From assembly GCA_964572955.1 (NCBI GenBank), contig CAZNGY010000008.1:1-52111 (forward strand): 52,111 nt of DNA, given 5' to 3'. This document shows positions 9,479 to 31,696 of this stretch, piece after piece. This stretch comes from an uncultured Lachnoclostridium sp. (GTDB lineage: Bacteria > Bacillota > Clostridia > Lachnospirales > Lachnospiraceae). A program made the position numbers and the translations under genes. A model generated the notes under the pieces. It did not search any database. It was given only the letters and a program-made list of their open reading frames with translations, and was not told the DNA's origin. Each line of letters starts with the position of its first letter. Within the stretch, counting starts at the first letter, position 1.

Positions 9479-11122
9479 TTATTCCGTTTTTCGCAAATTA
9501 TCCCTCAAAGCTGAAATAAACTCTCCGAATACTATCGGCTTCTTCACATAACCGTTCATATTATTTGAATATATGCTCATCTCCGTTTCTTTGGAAACAT
9601 TAGCCGTTATTGCAATTACCGGAATTTCATTTGTATTTCTATTTGCCGCCTTTATCATACGTGAAGTTTCCAAACCGTCCATTCCCGGAAGCATCAGATC
9701 CATAAGGACTAAATCATAATAATCTTTAGGACTTTTTGAAAAAATCCTTACCGCTTCATATCCGTCCGCTGCAACATCTGCCTTTGCTCCTATAAGACTT
9801 ACAAATTCACTTATAACCATTGTATTTGTCTCATTGTCATCAACCACAAGAAATCGTTTATCTTTAAATAAACCATTATCCAGCTCAAGGAGATTCACAT
9901 ATCCGCTCTTTTCAGATTCATTTTCCTCATTCTCATTATCAGCGTAATATCTGAAATCCATGTTGAGGGTTACCCTGGTTCCTACATCAATGCTGCTTTC
10001 CATATAAATTTCACCATTCATTTTATCGAGAATCTTTTCAGCAGCATAAAGACCAAGTCCCTGTCCTTTGATTTCCCTTTTTTCATCCCTTTTTTCCCTT
10101 GTGAACGGTTCAGTGCATTTTTTCAGAAAATCCTCCGACATTCCCATTCCGGTATCTTCAAATATGAATGTATACCTCGCACAGTTTTCTATCGAAGACG
10201 GCATTTCCATCATGCCTATACTTACGCTTCCGCCCTGTCTGTTATAGATTACTGCATTTGATATAATCGCGTAGATTACGGTTTTAAGTCTTGACCTGTC
10301 ACTATATACAATGTGGTGCTTGGTTCTCTCCGATATGTTGAATTTTATTTCCTTTTTTAGAATTTCCGGCTTAAGTTCTTCAATCACCTCTTCTGTAATC
10401 GTATCGAAGCAGCAAAGCTCCTCCTCAAGCTTTTCACCATCACTTTGAAGTCTTGTTATCTCTAAAATACAATCAACCTGTTTCAGGAGTTCATTTCCGG
10501 CACCGATTATTCTCCTAAGATATTTTTCAACCCTGTCCGGCCTGTCAATATTCATAAGTGCCAGGTTTGAATTTCCCAAGACGGTTGCTATCGGTGTTCT
10601 TATTTCATGAGAAATATTCTCCAAAAACCTTGTTCTGGATTCACCTGCTATTCTGTTTTTTTCCACGAGACTGCTTATAATGTTAATCCTTACACTCTCA
10701 TCGGCAATTATATCCTCAATTCTTCTTATCATGAGATAAGCGTGAGTCGGTATTCCGTTACTGACTTTTCCGGAGGTGAATCCGGCAAGACACCATTCTT
10801 CACCTCCTTTTATCTTTTTTCTTTTATATCGGCACTCCGTATGATTGTTTACAATGAGTTCCCTTTTAATATATTCGATTGACATCGCATTGGAGACTCT
10901 TTCAAAATCATCCTGAGAAAGTGTTTCCCCAAGAATATGCTTCATGGTCTTTGTATATGAACCCGGCTCAAAATTTTCGGAATATCGGGGATACAGCATA
11001 ACAAAGGTATCATCTTCAAGATTTATCTCATAAATCTGACTGTAATTAAAAACCGTTGAAAGAAGCGCTGAATTTAACAATTCCTGATCACTGTATCTGT
11101 CTGTAGGCCTATCTGTTTCCAT
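9479..11122 (-). CDS. cytoplasmic hybrid sensor histidine kinase (HisKA-HATPase-REC) with an unassigned ~150-aa N-terminal domain
   Basis: 547 aa. H-box ISHEIRTPIATVLG, G-boxes (DTGMGM, GQGLGL) and a C-terminal receiver (LVVDDNETN...LVLMDLMLPGMDG). No obvious TM segment. The start overlaps the GH3 stop by 14 nt. Confidence 0.8.
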   Translation of the reverse strand: METDRPTDRYSDQELLNSALLSTVFNYSQIYEINLEDDTFVMLYPRYSENFEPGSYTKTMKHILGETLSQDDFERVSNAMSIEYIKRELIVNNHTECRYKRKKIKGGEEWCLAGFTSGKVSNGIPTHAYLMIRRIEDIIADESVRINIISSLVEKNRIAGESRTRFLENISHEIRTPIATVLGNSNLALMNIDRPDRVEKYLRRIIGAGNELLKQVDCILEITRLQSDGEKLEEELCCFDTITEEVIEELKPEILKKEIKFNISERTKHHIVYSDRSRLKTVIYAIISNAVIYNRQGGSVSIGMMEMPSSIENCARYTFIFEDTGMGMSEDFLKKCTEPFTREKRDEKREIKGQGLGLYAAEKILDKMNGEIYMESSIDVGTRVTLNMDFRYYADNENEENESEKSGYVNLLELDNGLFKDKRFLVVDDNETNTMVISEFVSLIGAKADVAADGYEAVRIFSKSPKDYYDLVLMDLMLPGMDGLETSRMIKAANRNTNEIPVIAITANVSKETEMSIYSNNMNGYVKKPIVFGEFISALRDNLRKTE

Positions 11123-13931: not shown

Positions 13932-13944
13932 GTTCTTCTCCTTA

Positions 13945-14469
13945 CTAATTCATTATCTTATCAACGATACCGCAAAGTACCTTTACGGTATCACTCTGGT
14001 TGTACTGTTTATTAAGCAGATAAGCATAATAGCTGCCGTAAATCATGTATGAAAGCTCTACGTTTTTCTGCATATCATCCCTGTATTCAGGCTTTATGCC
14101 AAACAAAAGCTTCTTTATGGATTCATCTATTTTTTCAGGCAGCATACTGCTCCTGCTTCCCGAAAACAATATACCTATCATATGTTTCTTTGCATCATAT
14201 GCTAAAAACAGATTAGCCGTAAACTCTGCAGGATTTTCAAACACATTTTCAGGATTTTCTATAGTATCAATTATCCCTTCAATCACTTCCGTTTCCAGTT
14301 TCGATGATAAATCGTATATATCCCTGTAATGTACATAAAAGGTTGACTTGTTTATGTCTGCCGTTCTGCATATTTCTGTAACGGTGATTTTTTCAAGTTC
14401 CTTGTGCTGCCTTATACTTATAAAGGCATTTATTATACTTTGGCGGCTTCGCCAAACCCTTTTATCCAT
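13945..14469 (-). CDS. TetR/AcrR-family transcriptional regulator
   Basis: 174 aa. N-terminal HTH (RQSIINAFISI...ITVTEICRTADINKSTFYVHYRD). Strong RBS GGAGAAGGAGG. The stop lies 13 nt before the GH3 start. Confidence 0.65.
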   Translation of the reverse strand: MDKRVWRSRQSIINAFISIRQHKELEKITVTEICRTADINKSTFYVHYRDIYDLSSKLETEVIEGIIDTIENPENVFENPAEFTANLFLAYDAKKHMIGILFSGSRSSMLPEKIDESIKKLLFGIKPEYRDDMQKNVELSYMIYGSYYAYLLNKQYNQSDTVKVLCGIVDKIMN

Positions 14470-18039: not shown

Positions 18040-18681
18040 CTAAATTTTAACCGCTCTTACCGCATATCGGTCACTTCCTCCGTATGTACATGTAAACAAA
18101 GTAATGTCCCATTCCTCTGAACCTGAAAGCATTTTTTCCGTATCATACGCACTGATTGTATCGATCTGGATAACTCTGTAAGAATATGCCGTTCCTTCTG
18201 CATCAACAAAAATGATTATATCATCTGTATCAAGCGACTTTATTCCGCTGAAAAATGCCTTTAAATTATGGGCACATATAATAAGGTCATCATTTCCCTT
18301 ACTTCCGCTGTACCTGCACGCAGCGCTTTTCATTTTCTTCATATCCCAATCTGATGTAACCGGAAGGGTTATGTCAATTGCCGGAATGTTTATAACTCCT
18401 ATATATTCAACATCCTGTATAACAAATGTCTTTTCAACATATTCTTCCGGCAAAAGAGTATCCGAAGGGACAGCTGTCGACGGATTTTCTTTATTTCCTT
18501 CAAGTATCTCATTTATTGCTGCTTCATAATCTACATAGTCCGCTACTTCGTTCAAAACTCCTTCTGCAGCTTTTTCACACCTGTAATTATCAACTTCATT
18601 ATATAAAACAAGGGCTGATGCAAGAAATATCAGCACCGCCCCTGCCACAATAAATCCGTTTCCCGTGGATTTACTTTTCAA
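18040..18681 (-). CDS. sortase (second sortase of the pilus island, probably the anchoring / housekeeping-type enzyme)
   Basis: 213 aa. N-terminal TM anchor, catalytic His (ICAHN), TLFTC cysteine motif and C-terminal Arg (RYAVRAV). Overlaps the upstream pilin stop by 11 nt. Confidence 0.8.
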   Translation of the reverse strand: MKSKSTGNGFIVAGAVLIFLASALVLYNEVDNYRCEKAAEGVLNEVADYVDYEAAINEILEGNKENPSTAVPSDTLLPEEYVEKTFVIQDVEYIGVINIPAIDITLPVTSDWDMKKMKSAACRYSGSKGNDDLIICAHNLKAFFSGIKSLDTDDIIIFVDAEGTAYSYRVIQIDTISAYDTEKMLSGSEEWDITLFTCTYGGSDRYAVRAVKI

Positions 18682-19654
18682 TACTGTTTCTCCGTTCTGT
18701 TTTCTTTATCAGAAGGCCTGCTGCCACAAATATTATTCCGGCTGCCAAAAGAACCGGCACAGGCCACCAGAGCTGTCCTGTCTGAGGCAGTTTATCTGCC
18801 GGCGGCGTGATTTCCGTTCCCGGCTCATCACCACCCGATGAGGAACTTCCAAAGTATACATTCTGCACCCGGAATACATTTTCCTCATCAGCATATAAAA
18901 CCTTATATCCGTCAACCGCTGTAACTTCCTTGCAGCTCCACTCTTTCGTTGAATCACCTGTCCATGAATACTGCCAGTTGTTTTCTTCATTTAAAAGCAC
19001 ACTTGCAAAAAACTTACCGTCGCAAAAAATTTCAACATCAACAAAACTGCTCCTGTTTATTTCAAGCCCTTCATCTTTTAACCACAGCTTTTTAACCGAA
19101 TATTCAGCCATAACAGGATTTTCAGGAAGCTTATCCTCGCTTATTTTTGCCAATGCACTTAAATCTGCCGTGTTATTATCTGCATCCCACACTGCTGCTT
19201 CAAAAATTACCGGTGACATCTCATATACATAACCCAGATACTCATATTTATCTCCGTAAATGATATATATTCCGTCAGGGATATTTTCAAATACAGCCGT
19301 TCCGTCTGCTCCGCTTATCGCAGACGCCGATGGTTCCGCATTATCCGATTTAATCACATTTAAAAGAGATTCTGCAATTTCTGAAAGTTCCGACGACTTC
19401 ATGTCAACTTCCGGAACAATGCAGTTTTTAAACTCCTCATTATATTCGTAACTACCATCCGGCATTCTCCTTCCGACATAATACATGTCTATTTCCATGC
19501 CCTCTATTGTTTTAGTACCATCAACATTTTTGCAAATAACGCTTATGTCTCCAGTATCTTTTGTATTATTTTCACTTTCGGCAAATGCATATCCTGCCGC
19601 CAACACGACCATACATGTAAGTATGATCACTTTAGCAATCTTTTTTATTTTCAT
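18671..19654 (-). CDS. LPXTG-anchored minor/basal pilin candidate
   Basis: Signal peptide MKIKKIAKVIILTCMVVLAAGYAFA. C-terminal sorting signal LPQTG + hydrophobic stretch + KKTERR. GGAGGA RBS before the ATG at 19654; the ORF track extends 5 codons further to 19669. Confidence 0.6.
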   Translation of the reverse strand: MKIKKIAKVIILTCMVVLAAGYAFAESENNTKDTGDISVICKNVDGTKTIEGMEIDMYYVGRRMPDGSYEYNEEFKNCIVPEVDMKSSELSEIAESLLNVIKSDNAEPSASAISGADGTAVFENIPDGIYIIYGDKYEYLGYVYEMSPVIFEAAVWDADNNTADLSALAKISEDKLPENPVMAEYSVKKLWLKDEGLEINRSSFVDVEIFCDGKFFASVLLNEENNWQYSWTGDSTKEWSCKEVTAVDGYKVLYADEENVFRVQNVYFGSSSSGGDEPGTEITPPADKLPQTGQLWWPVPVLLAAGIIFVAAGLLIKKTERRNSIEK

Positions 19655-20528
19655 CACTATCCTCCTCATCTGCCTTCAATATTTTATTCAAAACAGCTTC
19701 TTTTGACGGCTTTTTCGTTTTTCCGCCAAACAGCCATACTATAATCAAAATTATTACAAGCGGACCTGCTATACAAGGTACCACAATCATCGGATCAACC
19801 TGTGTTGCATCCGCAGAAACAATATTCGACATCGTAGCCGCTTCAATATTTTCTATTCTCTTCCCTCGAACCAATAACCTGTGAGAATTTATACCATATG
19901 GCGTACATGTAACCAGAGTCACATAATCCTCACCACTTACTATTTCCAACTTTTCCGTATCATCCGGTTCTACAACCGAAATCATGTCAATCTGATAGGT
20001 ATATGTTTCATTCAATACCGTTATCGTAAAAATATCACCGGTAACAAGCTTATCAAGATCACTGAAAAGCTTTGCTGACGGCAAACCTCTGTGTGCCATC
20101 ACAACCGCATGTGTTCCCTCACCTCCGACCGGAAGTGACGTTCCCTGCAAGTGACCGATTGCCACATTAAGCACTTCTTCGCTGGTTCCATGATAAACAG
20201 GTAATGAAATTCCTATCTGGGGTATTGTTACATATCCCATTATCCCGCTTCCCGTAATATCAAGAATTTCGTAATAATTCTCGAGCTGTTTATATTCAAT
20301 CATCGGAAAATTCAGCTCTGCCAACTCTTTATTATACTTCTCTGCCTCTTCAATCAGCATTTCATACCGGTCATCATCAAGTGCCTCAACACTTTCCCGG
20401 TATGATGCTATCGCCTCCGACTGGCTTTTTGTATTCCACCAGTTACTAAATGCGGGATAAATTGTTATGCCTATTCCTGCTATTAATATAAGAACTAATA
20501 ATACTGTTGAAATACTGCTTTTTTTCAA
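19632..20528 (-). CDS. class C (pilus-polymerizing) sortase
   Basis: 298 aa. N-terminal TM, HAVVMAHRG His region, TLVTCTPYG, a conserved Arg (LLVRGKR) and the C-terminal hydrophobic anchor typical of SrtC. TTG start preceded by GGGAGG. Confidence 0.85.
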   Translation of the reverse strand: MKKSSISTVLLVLILIAGIGITIYPAFSNWWNTKSQSEAIASYRESVEALDDDRYEMLIEEAEKYNKELAELNFPMIEYKQLENYYEILDITGSGIMGYVTIPQIGISLPVYHGTSEEVLNVAIGHLQGTSLPVGGEGTHAVVMAHRGLPSAKLFSDLDKLVTGDIFTITVLNETYTYQIDMISVVEPDDTEKLEIVSGEDYVTLVTCTPYGINSHRLLVRGKRIENIEAATMSNIVSADATQVDPMIVVPCIAGPLVIILIIVWLFGGKTKKPSKEAVLNKILKADEEDSDENKKDC

Positions 20529-20550
20529 ACTGCCTGCCTCCCATATATCC

Positions 20551-20573
20551 TGCCGGCAGTTTTACTGCCGGCA
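20551..20573 (-). other. intercistronic stem-loop between the backbone pilin and srtC
   Basis: Perfect palindrome TGCCGGCAGT-TTT-ACTGCCGGCA (10-bp GC-rich stem) without a U-tract. A second palindrome CGGATTAGTTAATCCG sits right after the pilin stop. Confidence 0.5.
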
Positions 20574-20614
20574 ACATATTGGTTTAGTTATACGGATTAG
20601 TTAATCCGCTTTTA

Positions 20615-22066
20615 TTATTTTTCGTTCTGAACTCTCTTCTTTGTTATAAGAGCAACTCCTGCTGCAACAATAAGGATTCCGCCGACTACATAGAGAATTG
20701 TTGTACCGATTCCACCTGTTGTAGGAAGTGAAGAACCTGATTTGTTCATAATCTGAGCTGTAATCTGACCTTTTGCTGTATCAGCAGTAAAGTTTTCATT
20801 GTTTACTGTTAAAGAATTAAGCTTTTCATCGCTGTGATCTGCTGTTATTGTAAACTCAATATCAGCAATCTTGTTATATCCTGTAGGAGCCTTTGTCTCT
20901 TTAAGAATATAGTCTCCGTCATCAAGACCTGTTAATGTAAACGTATCATTCTTAGAGCCTGAAACAGTAAATGCCTTAAGTGGAGTTTCTACACCTCCCA
21001 CCTTCTTATAAAGAGTAAATTCTGCTCCGGAAAGAGGATTCTTATTCTCATCAACCTTGTTTACGATATACTCATATGTAAATACGATGGCTGAATCTTC
21101 TACTGTTTTACCTGTATCATTTGTGTTATTAGGGTTATTTGAATACTCAAGCTGAGCCTTGTTAGGGTTTCCCTCTGCCCCTATAACAGCATTTTCATTA
21201 AGCTTAGCTGTATATTCTACGATTACACTCTTGTCTGCTGCTGCATTTTCTACAGCCTTTAAATCTGTTATTGTTACATGGAATGAACAATCATCACTGG
21301 TTGATGTTTCAACAGTATACTTTGATGAATCAATAACTGTACCATCAACATAAACCTTTACATCGTTGTTAAATGTAAGTCCTTTTGAAAGAGTATCATG
21401 AAATACTAATTCATACTTATCATAATCAGCAAAGTTTTCAGGCAATGCTGTTTTAAGAAGGAATGGTACGTCATCTCCGATATCATAATCTGCAGAATCC
21501 TGCCATTCTGAGGTATTACCATTTGTGTCATTTACATCCTTAACACTTTTTGTTAATTCAGGCTGATCCTTTTTAGCTTTAATAGTTATGTTATCTGCCA
21601 CTACTTCAACAACATAAAGTGAATAACTCTCTGTGTTATTAGCTTTTCCTAAATCCTTGATAAGATAGTAGCCGCTCTCTACTTCAAGTGAGCTTGCGGA
21701 TGTTACTGTTCCGGCTGCATCGCTTTCTAAATTCACATAATTTAAAATTACTTCAAGCTTTTCTTTATCAGAACTGTTATTTACAGCGGTAAGAGCATTT
21801 ACAACGGCGTCGCCTACTGTATCTCCTACGTTTACGCTTTCACCAAGCTTAGCATTTTTTCCCCACTTAACATCAGCGAGCTTTATTATTGAGCCTTCAA
21901 CAGATGCCGTACCTGTGAAAATCTGGTACACTTCATAAGAATGATCGTCACCTTCTGCAACACTGATTGTGTACTTTGTTTCGTCAGCAAAAGCTGTCTG
22001 ACAAACCATTGCCGCAAGCATTGCTACCGTGAGTAAAACGCTTGCAATTTTTCTGATTCGTTTCAT
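20615..22066 (-). CDS. major (backbone) pilin candidate with E-box and LPXTG sorting signal
   Basis: Signal peptide MKRIRKIASVLLTVAMLAAMVCQTAFA (internal ATG preceded by AAAGGAGAAC; the ORF track extends to 22120). E-box-like YILKETKAPTGY. C-terminal LPTTGG + TM + KKR. Confidence 0.7.
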   Translation of the reverse strand: MKRIRKIASVLLTVAMLAAMVCQTAFADETKYTISVAEGDDHSYEVYQIFTGTASVEGSIIKLADVKWGKNAKLGESVNVGDTVGDAVVNALTAVNNSSDKEKLEVILNYVNLESDAAGTVTSASSLEVESGYYLIKDLGKANNTESYSLYVVEVVADNITIKAKKDQPELTKSVKDVNDTNGNTSEWQDSADYDIGDDVPFLLKTALPENFADYDKYELVFHDTLSKGLTFNNDVKVYVDGTVIDSSKYTVETSTSDDCSFHVTITDLKAVENAAADKSVIVEYTAKLNENAVIGAEGNPNKAQLEYSNNPNNTNDTGKTVEDSAIVFTYEYIVNKVDENKNPLSGAEFTLYKKVGGVETPLKAFTVSGSKNDTFTLTGLDDGDYILKETKAPTGYNKIADIEFTITADHSDEKLNSLTVNNENFTADTAKGQITAQIMNKSGSSLPTTGGIGTTILYVVGGILIVAAGVALITKKRVQNEK

Positions 22067-22136
22067 AATGTTCTCCTTTTCTTTTCGGCTGTGCCGATAA
22101 TATATCTTAATTGTTTTCACAAATTAAGCTTCTTTT

Positions 22137-22715
22137 TTAACGTGGCAATTTTCCAAATTCACTAAGAGGCCACAATCTTAAAATTACGGTTCCGATTACA
22201 TTTTCCTCTGCAATACAGCCAATTTCATCCGTTCGGCTATCAACCGAAGTTGCTCTATTGTCACCCATTACAAAATACCGGTCTGCCGGAACCTCATAAG
22301 GAAATTCTATGTCACAATCCCCTTTTGCTTTATTGATCACATAATTTTCTTCAAGCAGTTCACCGTTTACATAAATATTTCCGTCTGAATCTATATTTAC
22401 AGTATCTCCAGACACCGCTATAACTCTTTTCAAAAGAATTTTGTTGTTATGATAAAAAGCTATTATATCTCCGCTTTCAAACGTTCCCTGTCTCCTGCAG
22501 ATTACAAGCTGGTCATTTTCCATAGTAGGATTCATACTGTTTCCCGTAACTCTTAAAACCGGAAGTACCAGAGTTGCTATCAACACTGCTATTGCAGAGA
22601 CTACAATCAGAGAAGAAACCGTGCTTTTAAAAATTCTTATGTAATCACTTCTATACTTTCTTTTTCTAACGACATTTTCCAACTGTTCTGTCGTAGGCAG
22701 GTTGTCCTTTTGCAT
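22137..22715 (-). CDS. signal peptidase I (S26) embedded in the pilus operon, SipA/LepA-like position
   Basis: TM anchor, then SPase I boxes GNSMNPT (Ser), LLKRVIAVSGD (Lys) and GDNRATSVDSR. Start chosen at MQKDNL with a GAAGGAGAAAG RBS; the longer ORF would overlap the upstream small ORF. Confidence 0.85.
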   Translation of the reverse strand: MQKDNLPTTEQLENVVRKRKYRSDYIRIFKSTVSSLIVVSAIAVLIATLVLPVLRVTGNSMNPTMENDQLVICRRQGTFESGDIIAFYHNNKILLKRVIAVSGDTVNIDSDGNIYVNGELLEENYVINKAKGDCDIEFPYEVPADRYFVMGDNRATSVDSRTDEIGCIAEENVIGTVILRLWPLSEFGKLPR

Positions 22716-22731
22716 ACAAAACTTTCTCCTT

Positions 22732-22983
22732 CTATGACTTCGGTGAAGGTTTCTGCTCACCGGAACCATCATCCTTAAGAAGCCATCCGCAGAAGGCATC
22801 AACCTTACTGTTTGTTTCCTTCAGCAATCTGAGTATTTCACTGCCTGTCCCATTTTTTTCTTCTGCAAGCTTTGCTCTGAGTTCAATATTTTCATCTCTC
22901 AGCTCGTCAAGCTCACGCCGAAGAAGAAGCAGTATTTCCAGAAGTTCAGATTTACTGAGTTTTTTTAACTCTTTTTCCGTCAT
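22732..22983 (-). CDS. small coiled-coil hypothetical protein (83 aa) inside the pilus operon
   Basis: Heptad leucine-rich ELKKLSKSELLEILLLLRRELDELRDENIELRAKLAEEK. Fits exactly between the adhesin stop and the SPase start. No recognisable family. Weak RBS. Confidence 0.4.
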   Translation of the reverse strand: MTEKELKKLSKSELLEILLLLRRELDELRDENIELRAKLAEEKNGTGSEILRLLKETNSKVDAFCGWLLKDDGSGEQKPSPKS

Positions 22984-23045
22984 AAATCACCAACCGGCAG
23001 ACGATGTCACGGACATGAGCCGTCCGTCTCCACCGCCTGACTAAG

Positions 23046-26000
23046 TTATATTTTTGATGCTTTTTTTCTGATACCGAGTACCGCTCCTGCCAATGCCATA
23101 ACGGCAAATCCTGCAATCACCGCATACATACCGCCGTTTCCTCCGGTTTCAGGAAGTTCCACAGTGTCAAGTTTGTCGAGCGTATTGGTTAATGTTATGT
23201 TACCATTCATTCCCGAACCATTTCCGGAAATCGATGAAACAAAACCATCAACCGCATCCTCAACCACATAGTAATACAATTCTTTTCCGTCTTCATCTTT
23301 AAGAGAAAGTCCCTCTATCTGAAGAGTCCAACCGTCTGCTGCACTAAGTTTGTAATCATTAATCTTTGTAAGATTATTTGAATCCGGAAGTGTAGCACTC
23401 TTTATTGTTGAAGAATAAAGCGTTATCGAAATGTCACTTGGTGGGTTTTTAAGTTCATTACCGTTTCTGTCAAGCCATACCTTATTTATAAAGATGCCTT
23501 TTGAATTGATAACCGTAATCTTACCGCCTGAACCTGACACACCATTATTATCATATATTGGTGTAAAGCCCTCAACATCTGTTAATTCCTTAACGTAGTA
23601 ATAGTACTTTCTTCCGTATGCGTCAACACTGTCAAGGTTATCCCATGAATATGTCCATTTACCATCCGTACCACCCATAGAGATTTTTTCCATTAACTCT
23701 GCACCCGCAGGAACATCTCCTGAATCAGAACTCGTTAATGAACGATAAAGACCAAATTCGATTGTTTGCCCATCGTGCTTATCATTTCCGTCTGACCAGA
23801 TTTTCTCAATGTTAATCGAAACCTTTTTGCGGTTTTTTATATTGAGAGTGTTTCCTACTAATAAGGAAGTAATCTTCGATGTATGCACATCGTTACCTTC
23901 AGCATCAGTAAAATATTTACTGTTCAATGAAGAAATGAATTTTGATAAATCAGTATCATATACAAAATACTTATTATCACTGTAAGTCGTGTCATAACCT
24001 TCCGGAAAATCAACTTCTTCCAAGTAGTAAAGTGTATCCGAGTCTAACTTGAGTATAAACTCAGCTCCCTGCACTGTTGTATAGAAAAGACTCTCCGTTG
24101 GCTTTGTATCTGACCATGTCTTAACCACACTGTGACCTGCTTCATTTTTTTGAAGCTCTGTTGCATATACCCATTTCTTTGTTGTCGGCTCATACTTTGA
24201 AAGAACAAATCCCGCCTTGAGCTTTGTTCCCGTATCAGTTGCATCTACCTTACCGATTGTAAGTTCAAGCAATACCTTTGCTTCCGATGTATCATGTGCA
24301 ACGAAATCCGAACTATTACTGTCAAATGCCTGTCCGTACTGTGTATCTGCCGAAACAATGTTTGTTACCGGCATTGAATAGATTTCATCTGATGATGCCT
24401 GATAAACATATGTGATTCTCAGGTGTGTACTGTCAGGCACATCCATTTTAAGTTCCGCATCACCAAGCTTTTCATAATGTGTTATCTCAGCTTTTGCTGA
24501 TGTTGCAATTGTATAATCCGGAAGCCAGTCTGACTTTTTAAACAACACATATACATCGCCAGTAACCGTTTCATCAGATTCGGCTATAAATGAACATACC
24601 CAATTTCCCTCACTATCCTTCTTAGGCTGTGAGACAATTGTCAAATATTTTTTATTAGTCCATTGATTTATATAAAATACTGCAACCTCACTTATTACTG
24701 CATCCACATCTCCGCCTGACAGCGTTACAGTAAATTCATCACCATTTTTCACTCCCGGAATCGAAAATCCATCATATTTCCACTTCCAGTTATCATGTTC
24801 ACTATCTGTTGCCGGACTCATTGTTACTTCAGTAGTTGTAACCTTTTCCGGATTACTTGTGAACGTGTATGATGGAGTAGGAACAAGAGCCGTTGCATTG
24901 CCTTCACTGTCAACCTTCTCAAACTTTATGCTCTGAATCGACATATTGATAAGGTCCGCCGGACTTGCGTTGACCAAATAGCCCTTTTCGCCATTGTCAT
25001 TTACCTTATAGTAATAGGAACCGAATTTAAGCATATCAGTAAGGGTAACAATATCTTTTCCGTCTACCAGATCAAGCCCCATCGGATTGAATTCAACCGT
25101 ATATTCTATGTATCCGCCGACTGTCTGATTTGCAGATTTGTTTAAAGTGTCATCCGGAAGGAAATACTTAGGAGTTCCCGGTTCTACCGTAGTAGTCACC
25201 TTTGAAGTAGTATCAGTATCGTTTACGTCTTTAGCCTCATTGCTTATATCAAGACTGCCGCTTTCCAACTTGCCGTCAAGTGTTTTTATAGGAATATAAG
25301 CAGCATACTCAATAATAATTCTTTCACTCCCTACGAAACTACTGTAAAGAATAAACTTCACATTTTGCGTATCTCCGTCAATGCTCGTTTCGTATCTTCC
25401 ACGATAATCATTTTTTCCGAACATGTCTGAATATGTAAGTTTCCGTGTTCCATCAGCGTTCGTATAGTATAAATCGTCACTTGTTTCGAGAAGCCTGAAT
25501 CCCTCCGGCAGCTTATCAGATATATCTATTTCCTGATTATTGTACTCACCGTTTTCATTTAGAGTTATCTTCCATCTGAAAATATAGCAGTCCGTAAGTT
25601 TGCCATTAATTTCTACCCTCTGTGTTTCAAGCTTATCCGCATTTATAGGGCTTTCATAAACAGTTGTCTTTTCAAGCTTAACATCTCTTACAACATCGTA
25701 AGTGCCTTCTTTTTCTGCTTTAAATTTATCATCGTCATCCGCACTTACGGTATTCTTGAATACTACCTTATCTCCGGTACTCGTTCCATCAAGAGATATT
25801 TCCGATTCATAACTTACCCTGATTTCCTTTATTTCAGAAAACTTGGTTTTATCCGGATCCACAAGTTTTATTTCAAATCCTTTGCCTTCTTCATCCATTG
25901 TCAAGGTGTAATCAGTGTCCTTTACCAATGAACTGCTGCTTCCGCTAATCGGTACCACATCTACCTTTACGGAATCGGCTTTTATACTGAATTCAAGCTT

Positions 26001-28025
26001 ATCCCCACCCTTAATTTCGGATGTCATTGAATCGCTAATGGCAAAGCTGTCTTCAAAAACGTCCTTGTCACCATATAAATTAATCGTCCATGGTACAATA
26101 AGTTTTGTCTTATCATCCGAAAGCTTTGTAGTTCCAAGATCTTTTCTTGCAGATTTTTGTTTTTCATACGTTATTGTCTTGTCAGCTTCCAATGATATTT
26201 TATCTTTTTCTGCACTTACCTCATTTACTGTTGTATATGTTCCATCAGCATTTTTCGTTGAAAGCTCTTCATCATCGGCATCAGTATAATAGACAATGTC
26301 AATTGACCGTTTTCCCTGCCAATCCGGTATGAGCACACTTTCATCCACAGTGAGCTTTATCGTTCCGTCATCCTGAGCAGTATAAGTCACCCCGTTCGTC
26401 ATGGACACATCATACTTTCCGTCCTTAATTGCCTTACACAATCCCTTGTCCGTGATAACAAATCCATCAAGTCCTATACCGTCATCCGAGACATTATCCG
26501 TAAGTTTAATCGTCCATCTTATCTTGCCGCTGCCGTTATCTGCATAACCGCCCTTTTCAAGAGAGAACTGATTACGTTCTACTGTTTTCTCACTGTTTTT
26601 CCATGCAGTATTCTCCGGTGTCGAAATTGTTGCCGTGTTTTTATACCCATCATCCGACGCATCGGCACGATTAGGTGTCGTTATATAAGTAATTTCTATT
26701 TTTTTATTTTCAGTTCCCTCAGGAAACTTAATATACGGCTGTTCCCAGTTATTTTCTACTTGAATGACTTCAAATCCCGTAATTTCGGTTTTAGTCTCGC
26801 CATCCACGCCATTTATTTTAATAGAACCTGCATCAAGTCCTTTAAAAGCACTGTCCTTTAATATGAACTGATTGAAATCTGCACCTGTCGGATTGTCTAT
26901 GGTAATCGTCCAGGTGATTTTATCAGTATCACTGTCTGTCTGAACTCCGTATTCTATCTGTGCATTTTTTGAAATATTTATCTGTGAGTCCATTCTCACT
27001 GATTCTTTTTCCGTTTTTACGGTAGTTTCGTCAGGATCACGAAGACTAACCTCGTTGTTGTAAGTAGACCCGTTAATCAGTTCCTCCACTGTCGGATAGG
27101 TAACGTAGGTAATTGTCACTTCCTCAGCTTCCGTATCTCCCAATGTAAGTTTTTTGCTGTCTGCATCATAGCTCCACTCTCCATCATCCAAGGAACATGT
27201 AATGTTCTTTGCATCCTTGAACATCTTATCATCAAGAGTCAGATCCTTCAGGTTCGATTTTTTAGGATTCTGAAGCTTTACCGTCCATGCAATTGAACCA
27301 TCTTCATTAACACTGCCGGTTTTTTCAACTGACATCGGTCCATATTTGTAGCCGGAGACAGTAATCTCCCCTTCAGTTTTATCCTCCGTATTAAAATCAA
27401 AATTAATATCATCTTTGTCATCTTCGTTTTTCTTGCTGACATCTGCCGAAAATGAAAGGAACGCGGTCTTTTTATTGTCCTTGCTTACACTCAGCACGCT
27501 TTCCCTGAACTCATCATTAAACCTGATTACAACAAGGCCATTATCTTCAACTCTGTATGTACCTACAACCTTTCCTCCGTATACAACATTTCCAAGAGTA
27601 TCTGCGTCAGGATAACCGCCTGTTTTTACATTAATCAAGGCATTACCGCCTACATCTTCATTAAGATCATAGTATATGTAGTTACTTTTCTTCAACATTT
27701 CATCATACAACGAGAAATACATTTCGAATTTAACATTTATACTGCCGTCTCCGTCAATATCACCGACAATATTTCCGTTTTCATCCTTTGACTGCTCCAC
27801 GTTTACATTTGTAATGTCAGGAACGAAATGATACCAGTCATCTCCCGGTTTAGTATACGGACACGTAACTCCTCCTGCATCTTCAAGACTGACAGCCGGT
27901 TTAATAAGTCCTTTGGTCACAAACACAACCGCAACCAATGACAGGAATACCGATATTCCCAGCACAAATCTTCTGATTCTGCCATTCCTTACTGCCTGCT
28001 CAATTTTTCTATCTGAATTTTTCAT
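23046..28025 (-). CDS. giant LPXTG cell-wall-anchored adhesin (pilus tip adhesin candidate)
   Basis: 1659 aa. Signal/TM at the N-terminus. Thr/Asp/Lys-rich repetitive Ig-like composition. C-terminal LPETGG + hydrophobic segment + RKKASKI. First gene of the operon downstream of a consensus promoter. Confidence 0.7.
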   Translation of the reverse strand: MKNSDRKIEQAVRNGRIRRFVLGISVFLSLVAVVFVTKGLIKPAVSLEDAGGVTCPYTKPGDDWYHFVPDITNVNVEQSKDENGNIVGDIDGDGSINVKFEMYFSLYDEMLKKSNYIYYDLNEDVGGNALINVKTGGYPDADTLGNVVYGGKVVGTYRVEDNGLVVIRFNDEFRESVLSVSKDNKKTAFLSFSADVSKKNEDDKDDINFDFNTEDKTEGEITVSGYKYGPMSVEKTGSVNEDGSIAWTVKLQNPKKSNLKDLTLDDKMFKDAKNITCSLDDGEWSYDADSKKLTLGDTEAEEVTITYVTYPTVEELINGSTYNNEVSLRDPDETTVKTEKESVRMDSQINISKNAQIEYGVQTDSDTDKITWTITIDNPTGADFNQFILKDSAFKGLDAGSIKINGVDGETKTEITGFEVIQVENNWEQPYIKFPEGTENKKIEITYITTPNRADASDDGYKNTATISTPENTAWKNSEKTVERNQFSLEKGGYADNGSGKIRWTIKLTDNVSDDGIGLDGFVITDKGLCKAIKDGKYDVSMTNGVTYTAQDDGTIKLTVDESVLIPDWQGKRSIDIVYYTDADDEELSTKNADGTYTTVNEVSAEKDKISLEADKTITYEKQKSARKDLGTTKLSDDKTKLIVPWTINLYGDKDVFEDSFAISDSMTSEIKGGDKLEFSIKADSVKVDVVPISGSSSSLVKDTDYTLTMDEEGKGFEIKLVDPDKTKFSEIKEIRVSYESEISLDGTSTGDKVVFKNTVSADDDDKFKAEKEGTYDVVRDVKLEKTTVYESPINADKLETQRVEINGKLTDCYIFRWKITLNENGEYNNQEIDISDKLPEGFRLLETSDDLYYTNADGTRKLTYSDMFGKNDYRGRYETSIDGDTQNVKFILYSSFVGSERIIIEYAAYIPIKTLDGKLESGSLDISNEAKDVNDTDTTSKVTTTVEPGTPKYFLPDDTLNKSANQTVGGYIEYTVEFNPMGLDLVDGKDIVTLTDMLKFGSYYYKVNDNGEKGYLVNASPADLINMSIQSIKFEKVDSEGNATALVPTPSYTFTSNPEKVTTTEVTMSPATDSEHDNWKWKYDGFSIPGVKNGDEFTVTLSGGDVDAVISEVAVFYINQWTNKKYLTIVSQPKKDSEGNWVCSFIAESDETVTGDVYVLFKKSDWLPDYTIATSAKAEITHYEKLGDAELKMDVPDSTHLRITYVYQASSDEIYSMPVTNIVSADTQYGQAFDSNSSDFVAHDTSEAKVLLELTIGKVDATDTGTKLKAGFVLSKYEPTTKKWVYATELQKNEAGHSVVKTWSDTKPTESLFYTTVQGAEFILKLDSDTLYYLEEVDFPEGYDTTYSDNKYFVYDTDLSKFISSLNSKYFTDAEGNDVHTSKITSLLVGNTLNIKNRKKVSINIEKIWSDGNDKHDGQTIEFGLYRSLTSSDSGDVPAGAELMEKISMGGTDGKWTYSWDNLDSVDAYGRKYYYYVKELTDVEGFTPIYDNNGVSGSGGKITVINSKGIFINKVWLDRNGNELKNPPSDISITLYSSTIKSATLPDSNNLTKINDYKLSAADGWTLQIEGLSLKDEDGKELYYYVVEDAVDGFVSSISGNGSGMNGNITLTNTLDKLDTVELPETGGNGGMYAVIAGFAVMALAGAVLGIRKKASKI

Positions 28026-28131
28026 TTACCGAATTACCTCCAAAAACATACGGTTTTGATTTCTGTCAGATAAACTTTTCTTTTTATCTCTAAAAACGGG
28101 CGAACTTCCCCCAACCCATTTTCACACCTAT

Positions 28132-28160
28132 ATATTAATCACCTGAAGCAAATTTGTCAA
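28132..28160 (-). promoter_or_regulatory. sigma-A type promoter for the pilus operon
   Basis: On the minus strand: TTGACA - 17 nt - TAATAT, about 100 nt upstream of the adhesin ATG. Confidence 0.55.
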
Positions 28161-28242
28161 CCGCAGCAGTCATTTACACAAAAAATTAATAAATTTCAGA
28201 ATGCAAAACTTCTCAAGCAGCACCTGTATATAAAAAAAGCGA

Positions 28243-28271
28243 TTGACATAGTTTTTAAAACCACATATAAT
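28243..28271 (+). promoter_or_regulatory. perfect-consensus sigma-A promoter for degV
   Basis: TTGACA - 17 nt - TATAAT, about 60 nt upstream of the degV ATG. Divergent from the pilus promoter. Confidence 0.65.
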
Positions 28272-28332
28272 CAGTTTTAGAACGAAATAAGCAAAGAGTT
28301 TTCATAATATATGATAACCGTGGGAGGTAAAA

Positions 28333-29220
28333 ATGAGCACTTTCACTCTTTCCTGCTGTTCAACAGCAGACATATCAAAAGAACATTTCAAAGCAAGAGA
28401 CATAAAATATGTATGTTTCCATTTTGAGCTTGACGGCAAAGACTATTTTGACGATCTTGGCGAATCAGTTCCGCCTGACCGTCTTTATAAAGAAATGATA
28501 AACGGTGCTTCTACAAAAACTTCAATGGTGAGCGTCGGTGAATATAAGGAATTTTTCGAACCGTTTCTTAAAGAAGGTTCCGATATCCTTCACCTGACAC
28601 TTTCATCTGGAATTTCCGGCACATACACTGCTGCCGTTATAGCTGCCGATGAACTCAGAGAAGCTTACCCTGAAAGAAAAATTTATATTGTAGATTCATT
28701 CGCAGCATCCAGCGGCTATGGTCTGCTTATGGATAAGGCTGCCGACCTCAGGGACGAAGGCAAAAATATAGATGAAGTTCATGAATGGGTACTGAATAAT
28801 CGTTTAAAACTTCATCACTGGTTCTTCTCAACCGACCTTACATTCTATATCCGAGGCGGAAGGGTTACAAAGACTGCCGGTCTTGTAGGTCAGGTTCTTA
28901 AAATTTGTCCGCTCCTTAATGTGAGCAACGAGGGAAAACTTATCCCAAGAGAGAAAGTTCAATCCAAAAAGCGTGTAATCAAAAGAACCTTTGAAAAAAT
29001 GCTTCAGTATGCTCAGGATAGAGATGATTACAATGAAAAAGTTTATATCAGCCAGTCTGAATGCATTGATGATGCAAAAGCTCTTGCCACTCTCATTGAG
29101 GAACATTATCCGAAACTGAAAGGAAAAGTTGAAATAAATGACATAGGAGCCACAATCGGAAGCCATACAGGTCCGGGTACAGTGGCACTCTTCTTCTGGG
29201 GAGATGAAAGAACTGAGTAA
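28333..29220 (+). CDS. DegV-family fatty-acid-binding protein (FakB-like)
   Basis: 295 aa. DegV/EDD-fold signatures (LSSGISGTY, tandem alpha/beta). GGGAGG RBS. Confidence 0.85.
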   Translation: MSTFTLSCCSTADISKEHFKARDIKYVCFHFELDGKDYFDDLGESVPPDRLYKEMINGASTKTSMVSVGEYKEFFEPFLKEGSDILHLTLSSGISGTYTAAVIAADELREAYPERKIYIVDSFAASSGYGLLMDKAADLRDEGKNIDEVHEWVLNNRLKLHHWFFSTDLTFYIRGGRVTKTAGLVGQVLKICPLLNVSNEGKLIPREKVQSKKRVIKRTFEKMLQYAQDRDDYNEKVYISQSECIDDAKALATLIEEHYPKLKGKVEINDIGATIGSHTGPGTVALFFWGDERTE

Positions 29221-29228
29221 GAAAAAAA

Positions 29229-29257
29229 ATACCGCACATATGTGCGGTATTTTTTTA
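29229..29257. terminator. bidirectional rho-independent terminator (degV and the convergent EAL gene)
   Basis: AAAAAAAAT-ACCGCACATATGTGCGGT-ATTTTTTT, a perfect hairpin with A/T runs on both sides. Confidence 0.8.
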
Positions 29258-31696
29258 AGCTTCAGCATCAAGCATTCTGGAAAATTCTTCAAATGATACA
29301 GGTCTTGAAAAATAATATCCCTGCAGATAATCACATCCGTGTTCCGTAAGAAAATTAACCTGTTCTTCTGTTTCCGTTCCTTCGGCAATAACCTCTGCAC
29401 CCATATTGTGAGCCATATCTATTAATGAACATATTATACTTTCCGTTTTCCTATTCTGTCCTATTTTTCTTACAAATCCGATATCAAGTTTGATTATGTC
29501 AAAATCATATTCCGTAATCGTATTTATTGACGAATACCCCGTTCCAAAGTCATCAATAAGCAGTTTTGCACCAAGCTCCTTTATGGCACTCAAAGTGTTT
29601 TTGTTTGTTTCCGCAATGGAAACATACGAAGATTCGGTGATTTCAAAACGGCATAATTCCTTCATCGTTCCCACGTTCTTCATGTCCTCAATAATGTTTT
29701 CCATCATTTCTTCATCATAGAAATCCATTCTGGAAAGGTTTACTGATACGGGAACTATCCTTTTTCCTTCAATGGCACGTTTCTCAATATCTTCTCTTGC
29801 CTTTCTGAGTATGTACATATCAAGCTGGGAAACATGACCATTTTCCTCTAACCCCGGTATAAAAAGACCCGGCGTAAGGATTCCCCTTGTCGGATGTTTC
29901 CATCTTACAAGTGCTTCTGCTGATACAATCTTTCTCGTTTTAGTGTTGTATATAGGCTGATAGTACGGAACAAACTCCTCATTCTTCAATGCATCCGACA
30001 AAAGTCCCAGCACTTCATTCTTATCCACATACTTTTCTACCATTGTATCATCATAGAATTCATACGGTTTGGCATATTCATTTGTTACATATGAAACCGC
30101 CAGTTTGGCACGATCTATCATCGTACTTACTCCTACTGAATAATCATCTATCCTGTAGATTCCGCATCGCTGATAAATTGTCACAGTCTTTCCATCCCGC
30201 TCAAATCTCTCAGAACATACACTTCGTATGTTTTCTGCCGTGGATTTATCACGTCTTATAAGTGCTATAAAATGATCCGAACTGGATCTTGCCGTAATAA
30301 GCGGCTCTAGTTCGGAATTTCTGATACAGCCCATTACATACTTAATTGCACTGTCACCACCCTTTATACCGAACAATTCATTTACCGCCTTAAAGCTCTT
30401 TATGTCAAAATAATAAATATCAAATTTCTCGTCAGAACTGCTGTCCCTTAAAATCCGCATTGCATTTCTGATAAAACCTCGTCGGTTAAGTCCGTCAGTA
30501 AGCATATCCTGTTCTGAAATATCCGTAACATCTTCACCCGTAATAAGAACTATATTAAGTGATCTGTCAAATATCGTGTATCGGAATTTAATCAGATGCT
30601 GGTTTCTGTCAGAATCAAGAATTGTTATCGTAAAATCATAACTGCCCCTCTGCATTACCTGATTTTCTATATTTCTTATTGATACCGCCTGTACGAACTT
30701 AGTTCTTTCAAAAGGTGCTACATGCTTATGAAGCATTTCCTGATTCACTATATTATAATCGGTAACCTTATTTTCACGAAAAACCTTACTGTCCTTATTG
30801 AAGGTTATTTTCTTCATCATTATCGTTGACTGTGCAAGATCAATAATTCCGATAAATTTATACTCGTTTTCATATAAGAGCTTAGGAAGAAGTTCCTGTA
30901 CATACTTCTCTGTAAAGTCTGAAAATGCTAATTCTACATACCTTCTTCCCTTACCGGTTTTTTCATTAACATTTACTACAACTTTTAAGAGAATCCGCTC
31001 CGCATTTCCCGGAATATATCCGAACTGCATCTCTGCAAAGTTCTTTTTTTCATTACACATGCTCTTGAGACTGTCCGGCGAAAGAATTTTTCTGCATCGT
31101 TCCTGAGCACTTATCGTAGGACATCCATTTACAATCTTTGCGTACAAATCCGAATAACTGTCAAGTATCTCATAACCAAGGATGTTATTCTTCTCATTAA
31201 ACACCTGCACAACTCTGTCATTTTCAATGTCTACAACCATGCTTACGGCTTTTTCCGCTCCAACAGCTGCCATCGATTTGATAGCACAGAGTTCTTCGTA
31301 CCTTACTTTCTGAAGTTCAAAAAAATTCTTTATTCTGTTCTGAAGTATCCTTGTATTACAGGGATACGTATAGTAATCCACAATACCAAGATCAAATCCA
31401 CATTCTATATCTTCCGGTTCCTGATCCGACGAAAGAATGATAATAGGAATTTCTTTACCGTAATTTCTTTCCTTGATAAGAGAAAGCAGCGTCAGTCCAT
31501 CCATTTCGGGCATCACAAGATCAAGAAGCACAAGATCAACCTCATCACTTCTCTCATCCAGAATTTCAAGAGCTTCTTTTCCGTTTGATGCATTAATGAT
31601 ACTGTAGGTTTTCCCCAATACTTCATTAAGCATTTTTCGGTTCATTTCTGCATCATCAACAATTAAAATAACCCGTTTATCCATCATCGCAATCAC
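29255..31696 (-). CDS. response regulator with REC, degenerate GGDEF (SSDHF) and EAL domains; likely a c-di-GMP phosphodiesterase
   Basis: 813 aa. N-terminal receiver (ILIVDDAEMN...LVLLDLVMPEMDG). A GGDEF-like domain where RxGGDEF is replaced by RSSSDHF. C-terminal EAL with EALVRW and DDFGTGYSS. Confidence 0.85.
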   Translation of the reverse strand: MIAMMDKRVILIVDDAEMNRKMLNEVLGKTYSIINASNGKEALEILDERSDEVDLVLLDLVMPEMDGLTLLSLIKERNYGKEIPIIILSSDQEPEDIECGFDLGIVDYYTYPCNTRILQNRIKNFFELQKVRYEELCAIKSMAAVGAEKAVSMVVDIENDRVVQVFNEKNNILGYEILDSYSDLYAKIVNGCPTISAQERCRKILSPDSLKSMCNEKKNFAEMQFGYIPGNAERILLKVVVNVNEKTGKGRRYVELAFSDFTEKYVQELLPKLLYENEYKFIGIIDLAQSTIMMKKITFNKDSKVFRENKVTDYNIVNQEMLHKHVAPFERTKFVQAVSIRNIENQVMQRGSYDFTITILDSDRNQHLIKFRYTIFDRSLNIVLITGEDVTDISEQDMLTDGLNRRGFIRNAMRILRDSSSDEKFDIYYFDIKSFKAVNELFGIKGGDSAIKYVMGCIRNSELEPLITARSSSDHFIALIRRDKSTAENIRSVCSERFERDGKTVTIYQRCGIYRIDDYSVGVSTMIDRAKLAVSYVTNEYAKPYEFYDDTMVEKYVDKNEVLGLLSDALKNEEFVPYYQPIYNTKTRKIVSAEALVRWKHPTRGILTPGLFIPGLEENGHVSQLDMYILRKAREDIEKRAIEGKRIVPVSVNLSRMDFYDEEMMENIIEDMKNVGTMKELCRFEITESSYVSIAETNKNTLSAIKELGAKLLIDDFGTGYSSINTITEYDFDIIKLDIGFVRKIGQNRKTESIICSLIDMAHNMGAEVIAEGTETEEQVNFLTEHGCDYLQGYYFSRPVSFEEFSRMLDAEA

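Follow-up and report, generated by a model that had tools for sequence, protein, structure and literature searches.

We analyzed a 52,111-nucleotide stretch of DNA (hereafter, the window) from an uncultured Lachnoclostridium sp. (contig CAZNGY010000008.1 of assembly GCA_964572955.1) and identified on its minus strand, at positions 18040-28025, a set of seven genes that we read, with a probability of about 80%, as a chromosomal operon for a three-component, covalently polymerized sortase-dependent pilus of a type widespread among gut Clostridia. The open reading frames (ORFs), as read from the window, all run in the same direction and are separated, from the 5' to the 3' end of the operon, by gaps of 62, 16, 70 and 86 nucleotides followed by overlaps of 23 and 11 nucleotides. 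The same seven genes are recovered by independent gene calls on near-identical public contigs. From first to last, the operon encodes the following:

23046-28025, minus strand: adhesin, 1659 residues, ending in a region that includes VELPETGGNGG
22732-22983, minus strand: small ORF, 83 residues, belonging to no family
22137-22715, minus strand: signal peptidase I, 192 residues, type S26A
20615-22066, minus strand: backbone (shaft) pilin, 483 residues, with E-box YILKETKAPTGY and sorting signal LPTTGGIGT
19632-20528, minus strand: class C sortase (SrtC), 298 residues
18671-19654, minus strand: basal pilin, 327 residues, with sorting signal LPQTGQLWWP
18040-18681, minus strand: second sortase (Srt2), 213 residues, fitting no sortase class

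The operon lies between proA (NF001221, 529 bits) and a DegV-family gene (TIGR00762, 237 bits), as stated in the original prediction for this DNA, which had been made from the sequence and its ORF translations. That prediction described these seven closely spaced or overlapping minus-strand genes as a self-contained pilus island, and its account of the gene content stands. The LPETG adhesin, the 83-residue ORF and the LPQTG basal pilin are present as claimed, and the E-box and LPTTG signal of the backbone pilin can be read directly. Profile searches, proposed at the time as a check, uphold the Peptidase_S26, SpaA, Cna_B and Sortase assignments, the last including a Sortase Pfam domain in the final gene of the operon. 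The accompanying expectation that both sortases would bear class signatures was borne out for SrtC, but Srt2 exceeds no class-specific cutoff.

The backbone pilin matches GramPos_pilinBB (102 bits versus 30.5), SpaA (60 bits) and the isopeptide D2 model TIGR04226 (99.7 bits versus a cutoff of 30). Over its full length it also matches the solved pilins 9uvr, 9uvm, 8wxd and 8wg6, with E values down to 1e-81 in alignments that cover the pilin-motif region K-x-D-x-P-x-L-T-K, the E-box and LPxTGGIGT. The deposited names of these structures are those of Streptococcus sanguinis SSA_1632 and SSA_1633 (PMC2909906), the organism being taken from the names alone; a literature search by the PDB codes of the best pilin match returned nothing. 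Weaker matches include Clostridium perfringens CppA (E 5e-20), pilins of group B Streptococcus (GBS), RrgB and Streptococcus pyogenes T6 (E 1e-13). In an alignment with 44 homologues from related loci, Lys165, which lies in IKAKKD just before the D2 domain at the position of the pilin-motif lysine, is kept in 41, the surrounding residues not forming a literal YPKN. Both Glu390 of the E-box and LPxTG occur in all 44 homologues. Also conserved are two isopeptide sets (K173/D224/N302 or N310, and K337/E390/N441) and the sorting signal L447-P-x-T-G-G-x-G454. These features point to a backbone pilin of the RrgB/SpaA type, with predicted intramolecular Lys-Asn isopeptide domains.

The adjacent sortase scores 276 bits against the class C model NF033745 (cutoff 160) and contains the motifs HRGLPSAKLF and TLxTCTPYG, along with transmembrane (TM)-like segments at residues 1-30 and 242-271; no class B model is found among its profile matches. 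At the other end of the operon, the adhesin carries two C-terminal Cna_B domains and the sorting signal LPETGGNG, whose triple glycine was read from the sequence. It has TM-like segments at residues 16-47 and 1631-1654 and a signal/anchor with a long N-region. When the protein was searched against Pfam as five overlapping segments, its first ~1250 residues gave no significant family or binding domain (a weak DUF11 match only) and no thioester-domain match down to E = 1, a negative that holds at the level of sequence, where a cryptic domain is possible. A comparison with PDB sequences gave no match. Taken together, the predicted proteins supply the elements of a heterotrimeric SpaA/SpaCBA-type pilus: a class C sortase, a pilin-motif lysine, an E-box, sorting signals, and both tip and basal pilins.

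We propose the following course of assembly. All three pilins would be exported through Sec, and the operon's own signal peptidase I would remove their signal peptides, perhaps assisted by the 83-residue cytoplasmic protein acting through the peptidase's conserved cytoplasmic tail. Following the SpaA/SpaCBA paradigm and the motifs described above, the class C sortase would cut the adhesin and the backbone pilin at LPxTG, which in both proteins is part of an LPxTGGxG signal, and, by linking each Thr to Lys165 on the following backbone subunit, would leave the adhesin at the tip. The basal pilin would be taken up by Srt2 and would accept the shaft on a conserved lysine, probably Lys170. Transfer of the basal pilin with its shaft to the cell wall would then end growth, as suggested by the partition of sorting motifs and the pairing of genes discussed below.

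Spread of the operon type in gut Clostridia

When one genome per species was scanned, at least 494 relatives of the operon peptidase were found, and the best 80 loci were examined. The closest of these 80 is 65% identical. Ruminococcus and Oscillospiraceae contain many relatives at about 60% identity, and individual alleles are present on up to 658 contigs. The nearest assemblies, GCA_964584255.1 (94%) and GCA_051877895.1, are labeled Lachnospiraceae, and the ~60% relatives mostly bear the label Ruminococcus or Oscillospiraceae. Taxa with relatives comprise Ruminococcus, Oscillospiraceae, Acutalibacteraceae, Lachnospiraceae, Hominimerdicola, Blautia, Dorea, Fusicatenibacter and Intestinimonas.

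Among the best 80 of the at least 494 relatives, a recurrent gene order emerges: small ORF, peptidase, giant LPXTG adhesin, backbone pilin, SrtC, basal pilin and Srt2. Pilus genes are recognizable in 61 of the 80 loci, and 12 of the remaining 19 end less than 5 kb past the peptidase. Inspection of ten of those loci found, in nine, an ORF of 1400-3300 residues or more that lies downstream of the peptidase and runs off the end; locus L065 (loci are numbered with the prefix L) lacks one. Thus, the synteny search in related Clostridia that had been suggested for this DNA recovered a recurrent seven-gene pilus operon, and the operon in the window is one case of this widespread type in gut Clostridia. 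Two loci carry two or three small ORF-peptidase pairs each (L088, 6311-10570; L089, 5899-10567), every pair beside its own sortase or pilin genes and some on opposite strands, so that they look like tandem or divergent pilus clusters.

The genes of the operon diverge at different rates. Relative to L002, the closest distinct lineage, the degV and proA flanks are 89% identical. The peptidase (94%, the most conserved gene of the locus), the small ORF (93%) and SrtC (92%) stand above this value, and Srt2 (83%), the basal pilin (82%), the backbone pilin (76%) and the adhesin (76%) stand below it. The peptidase and SrtC are better conserved than the flanks and the pilins less well (94% and 92% versus 89% versus 76-82%). 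Exposed pilus subunits usually diverge faster than enzymes.

To our knowledge, sortase-dependent pili have been studied almost exclusively in pathogens and a few probiotics. The operon type described here is abundant in dominant gut commensals, among them Ruminococcus callidus with its relatives, Blautia, Dorea and further Oscillospiraceae, where the pilus probably contributes to attachment to mucus, fiber or other cells. Literature on sortase pili in Ruminococcus and other Clostridia yielded reviews in which this operon type is not described, and in the searchable literature we found no description of the small partner protein or of the pairing of basal pilin with Srt2. Three aspects look under-described: a small coiled-coil protein that lacks a Pfam family and is tightly paired with an active peptidase; an [LIV]PQTG basal pilin accompanied by a short, class-less sortase; and pilins that diverge faster than the enzymes of the operon.

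In loci of the R. callidus type (L005-L007, 10657-19545; L095, 1708-9084), the small ORF and peptidase are followed by an adhesin of 3000-4100 residues with GDSL-lipase domains between its Cna_B repeats. Such a protein would constitute an esterase-bearing pilus tip.

The second sortase and the signal peptidase

The final two genes of the operon form a pair. The basal pilin has a single Cna_B domain (28 bits versus a cutoff of 22.3), the conserved Lys170 and a Pro-rich tail. Its sorting signal differs from those of the other two pilins: [LIV]PQTG occurs in 20 of 27 basal homologues and in 0 of 43 backbones and is followed by a conserved QLxWP, and the triple-glycine LPxTGGxG found in the adhesin and backbone is absent from it. 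In Lactobacillus (Lacticaseibacillus) rhamnosus GG, the triple-glycine signal, which has been described for substrates of class C sortases, is likewise absent from the basal pilin (PMC5536039); that basal pilin, the LPQTG protein SpaB, is processed by a sortase other than class C (PMC8244301). Moreover, Srt2 directly follows 22 of 23 complete basal-pilin genes, and 25 of 26 Srt2 genes are preceded by a basal pilin. Because the sorting signals partition in this way and the two genes are paired, our findings support a role for Srt2 as a dedicated sortase for the basal pilin, insofar as such a role can be predicted from motifs and gene order.

The enzyme itself is difficult to classify. It carries the catalytic triad His (AHNY), Cys (TLFTCT) and Arg and a family-specific motif, APCRYxGS, and has an N-terminal TM segment only. 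Its class scores fall below the cutoffs (class C, 51 versus 160 bits; SrtD-type, 35 versus 140; class D, 30 versus 165), and it does not match the NCBIfam models for classes A, B, E or F. In a profile search, the top match is Ebp SrtC (71.6 bits), with class D enzymes and C. perfringens SrtC next at ~56 bits. A fold search with the AlphaFold2 (AF2) model of Srt2 (predicted local distance difference test [pLDDT] score 82) does not separate the classes, retrieving sortases of classes A, C, D and E with comparable E values.

The best of these matches raise the possibility that Srt2 is another pilin polymerase, for instance one that adds the basal or tip pilin, a task performed in the pneumococcal PI-1 and GBS islands by additional SrtC enzymes. 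Wall anchoring would then fall to a housekeeping sortase encoded elsewhere. Besides Ebp SrtC, matches on this side include C. perfringens SrtC and SrtC-1 (E ~1e-9), and the presence of several class C sortases in one pilus island is a familiar situation (PMC8088525). Nevertheless, Srt2 falls far short of the class C cutoff and matches class D and class A enzymes almost equally well. A C-terminal TM segment is present in 46 of 47 SrtC relatives and in 0 of 22 Srt2 homologues, which also have no conserved lid motif. In addition, Srt2 is strictly paired with a basal pilin that lacks the triple-glycine mark of class C substrates. We regard the second-polymerase role as possible, though clearly the less likely of the two, and favor cell-wall anchoring and termination as the role of Srt2.

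The third gene of the operon encodes a protein with a strong signal peptidase profile (Peptidase_S26, 117 bits; TIGR02227, 126 bits versus a cutoff of 47). Its Ser60 (in GNSMNPT) and Lys96 (in LLKRVIAVSGD) align with the catalytic motifs of Staphylococcus aureus SpsB. These two motifs, which hold the Ser-Lys dyad of boxes B and D, and the box E sequence GDNRATSVDSR do not vary among 17 homologues that are 59-94% identical. Among solved relatives, SpsB and other active enzymes outscore S. pyogenes SipA (4n31, E 3e-10) and LepA (4k8w, E 3e-9). In the alignment with SipA, the columns of Ser60 and Lys96 contain Asp and Gly, in keeping with the report that SipA lacks the Ser/Lys dyad, with Asp48 and Gly85 as substitutions, and is non-catalytic (PMC4049620). 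This difference led us to reject a SipA-like, non-catalytic chaperone, and the operon peptidase is predicted to be a catalytically competent type I signal peptidase (S26A). An N-terminal TM segment spans residues 26-60, and the cytoplasmic tail before it is conserved among the 17 homologues, all of which have Pro7 and Tyr25 and nearly all Gln11. A Shine-Dalgarno sequence, AAGGAG, ends 10 nucleotides ahead of its ATG.

Immediately upstream of the peptidase gene lies the small ORF. It is kept at 43-49% identity in distant loci, with the invariant pattern E-L-x-K-L-x(3)-E-L-L-E-I-L-L. No TM segment is predicted, and the AF2 model (pLDDT 85) shows a helical hairpin of helices 11-44 and 46-71; a fold search of this model against the PDB returned nothing below E = 2. 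The family has no Pfam entry, and scans of ten members gave sub-threshold coiled-coil noise. An exhaustive profile search collected 3481 cluster representatives at E<=1e-3 and 422 at E<=1e-10, the weak end being doubtful for a coiled-coil profile. The small ORF is directly upstream of a peptidase in 72 gene pairs, 28 of which overlap by 4 nucleotides and 56 of which have a gap of at most 30 nucleotides, and distant members again adjoin a peptidase and a giant adhesin. From sequence and model, the product appears to be a cytoplasmic helical protein encoded by a partner gene of the peptidase, and it may work with the peptidase from the cytoplasmic side.

Could the peptidase be a housekeeping enzyme that merely resides in the operon, with no pilus-specific role and an unrelated small ORF beside it? 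Its intact dyad, its standing as the most conserved gene of the locus and its closeness to SpsB-type enzymes are compatible with this possibility. Furthermore, a Streptococcus suis strain deleted for sipF, which encodes a peptidase of the active type, remains piliated, with polymerization weakened but not abolished (PMC2797073). Against it, essentially every long-enough locus among the best 80 relatives has the peptidase beside a giant LPXTG adhesin and pilus genes, peptidase copies track the number of pilus clusters (L088, L089), and the small ORF is closely paired with the peptidase gene, in many cases overlapping it. We consider a purely housekeeping enzyme improbable.

A more ambitious reading holds that the small protein and the active peptidase form a dedicated pilin-processing module, that Srt2 represents a new class of termination and anchoring sortase, and that the operon as a whole defines a self-sufficient "Clostridial type" of pilus locus. 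Here, the small protein would dock on the N-terminal tail of the peptidase and time or gate cleavage of the adhesin's atypical signal anchor with its long N-region. We advance this reading tentatively, and as a whole it is unlikely.

Several points weigh against our interpretation of the operon. The pilus is predicted from its genes and their sequence, and the question of a housekeeping peptidase or sortase was viewed from the locus. The canonical DP[FWY] lid motif is not present in SrtC of the window; at the sequence level, 4 of its 47 relatives have it and 43 do not. Since the closest solved relatives of Srt2 are class C polymerases and it reaches no class cutoff, it is possibly a second polymerase. 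The operon peptidase may be dispensable, because the S. suis SipF deletion only weakened polymerization (PMC2797073). The tie between small ORF and peptidase consists of gene adjacency only, and in one locus (L092, 235-4347) a distant small-ORF member (P0160) follows a SpaA pilin, a 342-residue sortase and a 243-residue ORF of no family, with no peptidase; the link of the small protein may therefore be to pilus loci generally and not to the peptidase as such.

A further alternative is that the three LPXTG proteins are separate wall-anchored monomers that form no polymer, the adhesin being large enough to act as a fibrillar adhesin by itself. This is very improbable: the class C sortase, pilin-motif lysine, E-box, TIGR04226 match and triple-glycine signals are jointly diagnostic of polymerized pili, and the closest solved relatives of the backbone are pilins.

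Comparison with described pilus loci

The nearest described architecture is the srtF cluster of S. suis (sipF-sfp2-sfp1-srtF), which combines an intact-dyad peptidase, an ancillary pilin, a major pilin and a class C sortase (PMC2797073, PMC4049620). Peptidase, adhesin, backbone and sortase follow one another in it just as they canonically do in the Clostridial relatives, whereas the window has its adhesin shifted to a position upstream of the peptidase. By description, the S. suis cluster lacks the small coiled-coil gene, the basal pilin and the second sortase, and anchoring proceeds via an unlinked SrtA. Clusters of S. agalactiae are also said to carry an intact-dyad SipA homologue (PMC4049620).

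The SpaCBA-SrtC1 pilus of L. rhamnosus GG resembles the operon in a different respect. Its tip and backbone pilins carry LPxTGGxG and its basal pilin LPQTG without the glycines, and a class C sortase polymerizes while another sortase handles the basal pilin (PMC5536039, PMC8244301). That other enzyme is an unlinked housekeeping SrtA, which performs anchoring, and the operon has neither a signal peptidase nor the small ORF; in the window, by contrast, a short class-less sortase is encoded directly after the basal pilin.

In C. perfringens, the VR-10B locus (cnaA-fimA-fimB) is a Clostridial sortase pilus with an embedded signal peptidase, although the locus is FCT-like and uses a class B sortase, unlike that of the window (PMC8088525). 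An embedded peptidase was thus known earlier in Clostridia. Given this precedent and the at least 494 relatives found here, nearly all evaluable ones of which adjoin pilus genes, the earlier view that such a peptidase is rare outside streptococci does not hold. Searches with the backbone pilin and the sortases also recover, as relatives, CppA and SrtC of the C. perfringens Cpp pilus, with CppA reaching an E value of only 5e-20 against 1e-81 for the best solved pilins.

The original prediction likened the operon to the fibronectin-binding, collagen-binding, T-antigen (FCT) regions of S. pyogenes, whose cpa-sipA-fctA-srtC-fctB order it was said to mirror. The order does match: in FCT-2, FCT-3 and FCT-4 alike, the roles run tip adhesin, signal peptidase-fold protein, backbone, sortase and basal pilin, and SipA is a detectable homologue of the window peptidase. 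Kinship with FCT regions does not follow, as components differ and the order is exceptional among relatives of the operon. Three features of FCT regions are missing from the window. Where they have the non-catalytic SipA, the window has a peptidase with its dyad (PMC4049620); where they have Spy0129, a polymerase described as class B (PMC3019223), the window has a class C SrtC; and where they have a Cpa-type thioester adhesin, the window has an adhesin in which no thioester domain was detected. The window operon additionally contains the small ORF and the second sortase.

How the shared order came about is suggested by a lineage with 68% peptidase identity, which has the operon at the same degV...proA site with the peptidase first. 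As relatives, this one included, begin with the small ORF and peptidase, we take the FCT-like order of the window operon to be a local rearrangement, and likeness in gene order is then no indication of shared descent. Base composition likewise gives no mark of an island, as the G+C fraction of the locus (0.36-0.41) equals that of its flanks and the rest of the window. Flat composition and conservation of the site in the 68% lineage argue against a recent island. A pilus operon with tip, shaft and base pilins and two sortases is what remains of the proposed pilus island, and a horizontally acquired island was rejected, with the degV...proA site being conserved across lineages. The least probable explanation we considered, a true FCT homologue acquired horizontally with its peptidase serving as a SipA-type chaperone, can appeal to the matching order, to SipA and LepA as relatives of the peptidase and to the T6 match of the backbone, but is largely refuted by the invariant catalytic residues and better-scoring SpsB-like enzymes, the sortase class, the lack of a detected thioester domain, the derived order and the flat composition.

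For the question surrounding SipA, the operon makes a natural comparison, as it pairs a catalytically intact, pilus-linked peptidase with a conserved small partner. With its own putative anchoring sortase as well, it provides genetic handles on how pilin processing is coupled to pilus termination.

Promoters, leader and neighboring genes

Regulatory elements within and beside the operon are as follows:

28243-28271, plus strand: perfect consensus promoter TTGACA-17-TATAAT (12/12, the sole one), 62 nucleotides upstream of the degV ATG
28132-28160, minus strand: likely operon promoter TTGACA-17-TAATAT (10/12 to consensus), with the -35 box at the 28160 side
28091-28124, minus strand: leader hairpin flanked by an A-run and a U-run, from RNA folding of the 5' leader
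20549-20609, minus strand: two hairpins, GCGGATTAACTAATCCG and GCCGGCAGtaaaaCTGCCGGC, read from the sequence in the gap between the backbone pilin and SrtC

The pilus genes had been placed behind a perfect-consensus promoter. The only such promoter is on the plus strand, points away from the pilus genes and serves degV; it is kept in L002 and L003 with an 18-nucleotide spacer. We rejected it as the operon promoter for its strand and its position ahead of degV. The TTGACA-17-TAATAT sequence ahead of the adhesin is likely to be the pilus operon promoter, and its -35 and -10 boxes are kept in the 94%-identical loci L002 and L003, with a TTGAAA variant in L009, the 68% relative.

The leader hairpin is also kept in L002 and L003, and L009 has an analogous GGG...CCC-TTTT. 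It is possibly an attenuator or stabilizer, although the hairpin is weak evidence, since the folding energy of the leader as a whole has a z-score of just -1.08. Scanning the leader against Rfam, with the cyclic di-GMP (c-di-GMP) riboswitch among the families covered, gave 0 matches at E<=1. Of the two hairpins between the backbone pilin and SrtC, one is a perfect 8-bp GC-rich stem, and neither is followed by a U-run. We speculate that they set the ratio of pilin to sortase expression.

Several further features of the window lie outside the operon. Two genes from it, at 29255-31696 on the minus strand, is an 813-residue response-regulator protein with GGDEF and EAL regions, whose matches to c-di-GMP phosphodiesterases all fall below equivalog cutoffs. 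This protein could link c-di-GMP signaling to adhesion. A 190-residue ORF at 28828-29400 on the minus strand, antisense to the 3' part of degV and overlapping the neighboring gene, is probably not a gene. Against Rfam, the window as a whole matched only a flavin mononucleotide (FMN) riboswitch unrelated to the pilus (RF00050, 9286-9410, minus strand, 100 bits versus a gathering threshold of 66), which lies upstream of a riboflavin operon led by ribD (8005-9111). Beside glgB, a conserved minus-strand block at 9479-14469 encodes a hybrid histidine kinase/response regulator, a 940-residue GH3 glycosidase and a small TetR-like regulator, and this block also flanks the pilus locus in L001 and L002.

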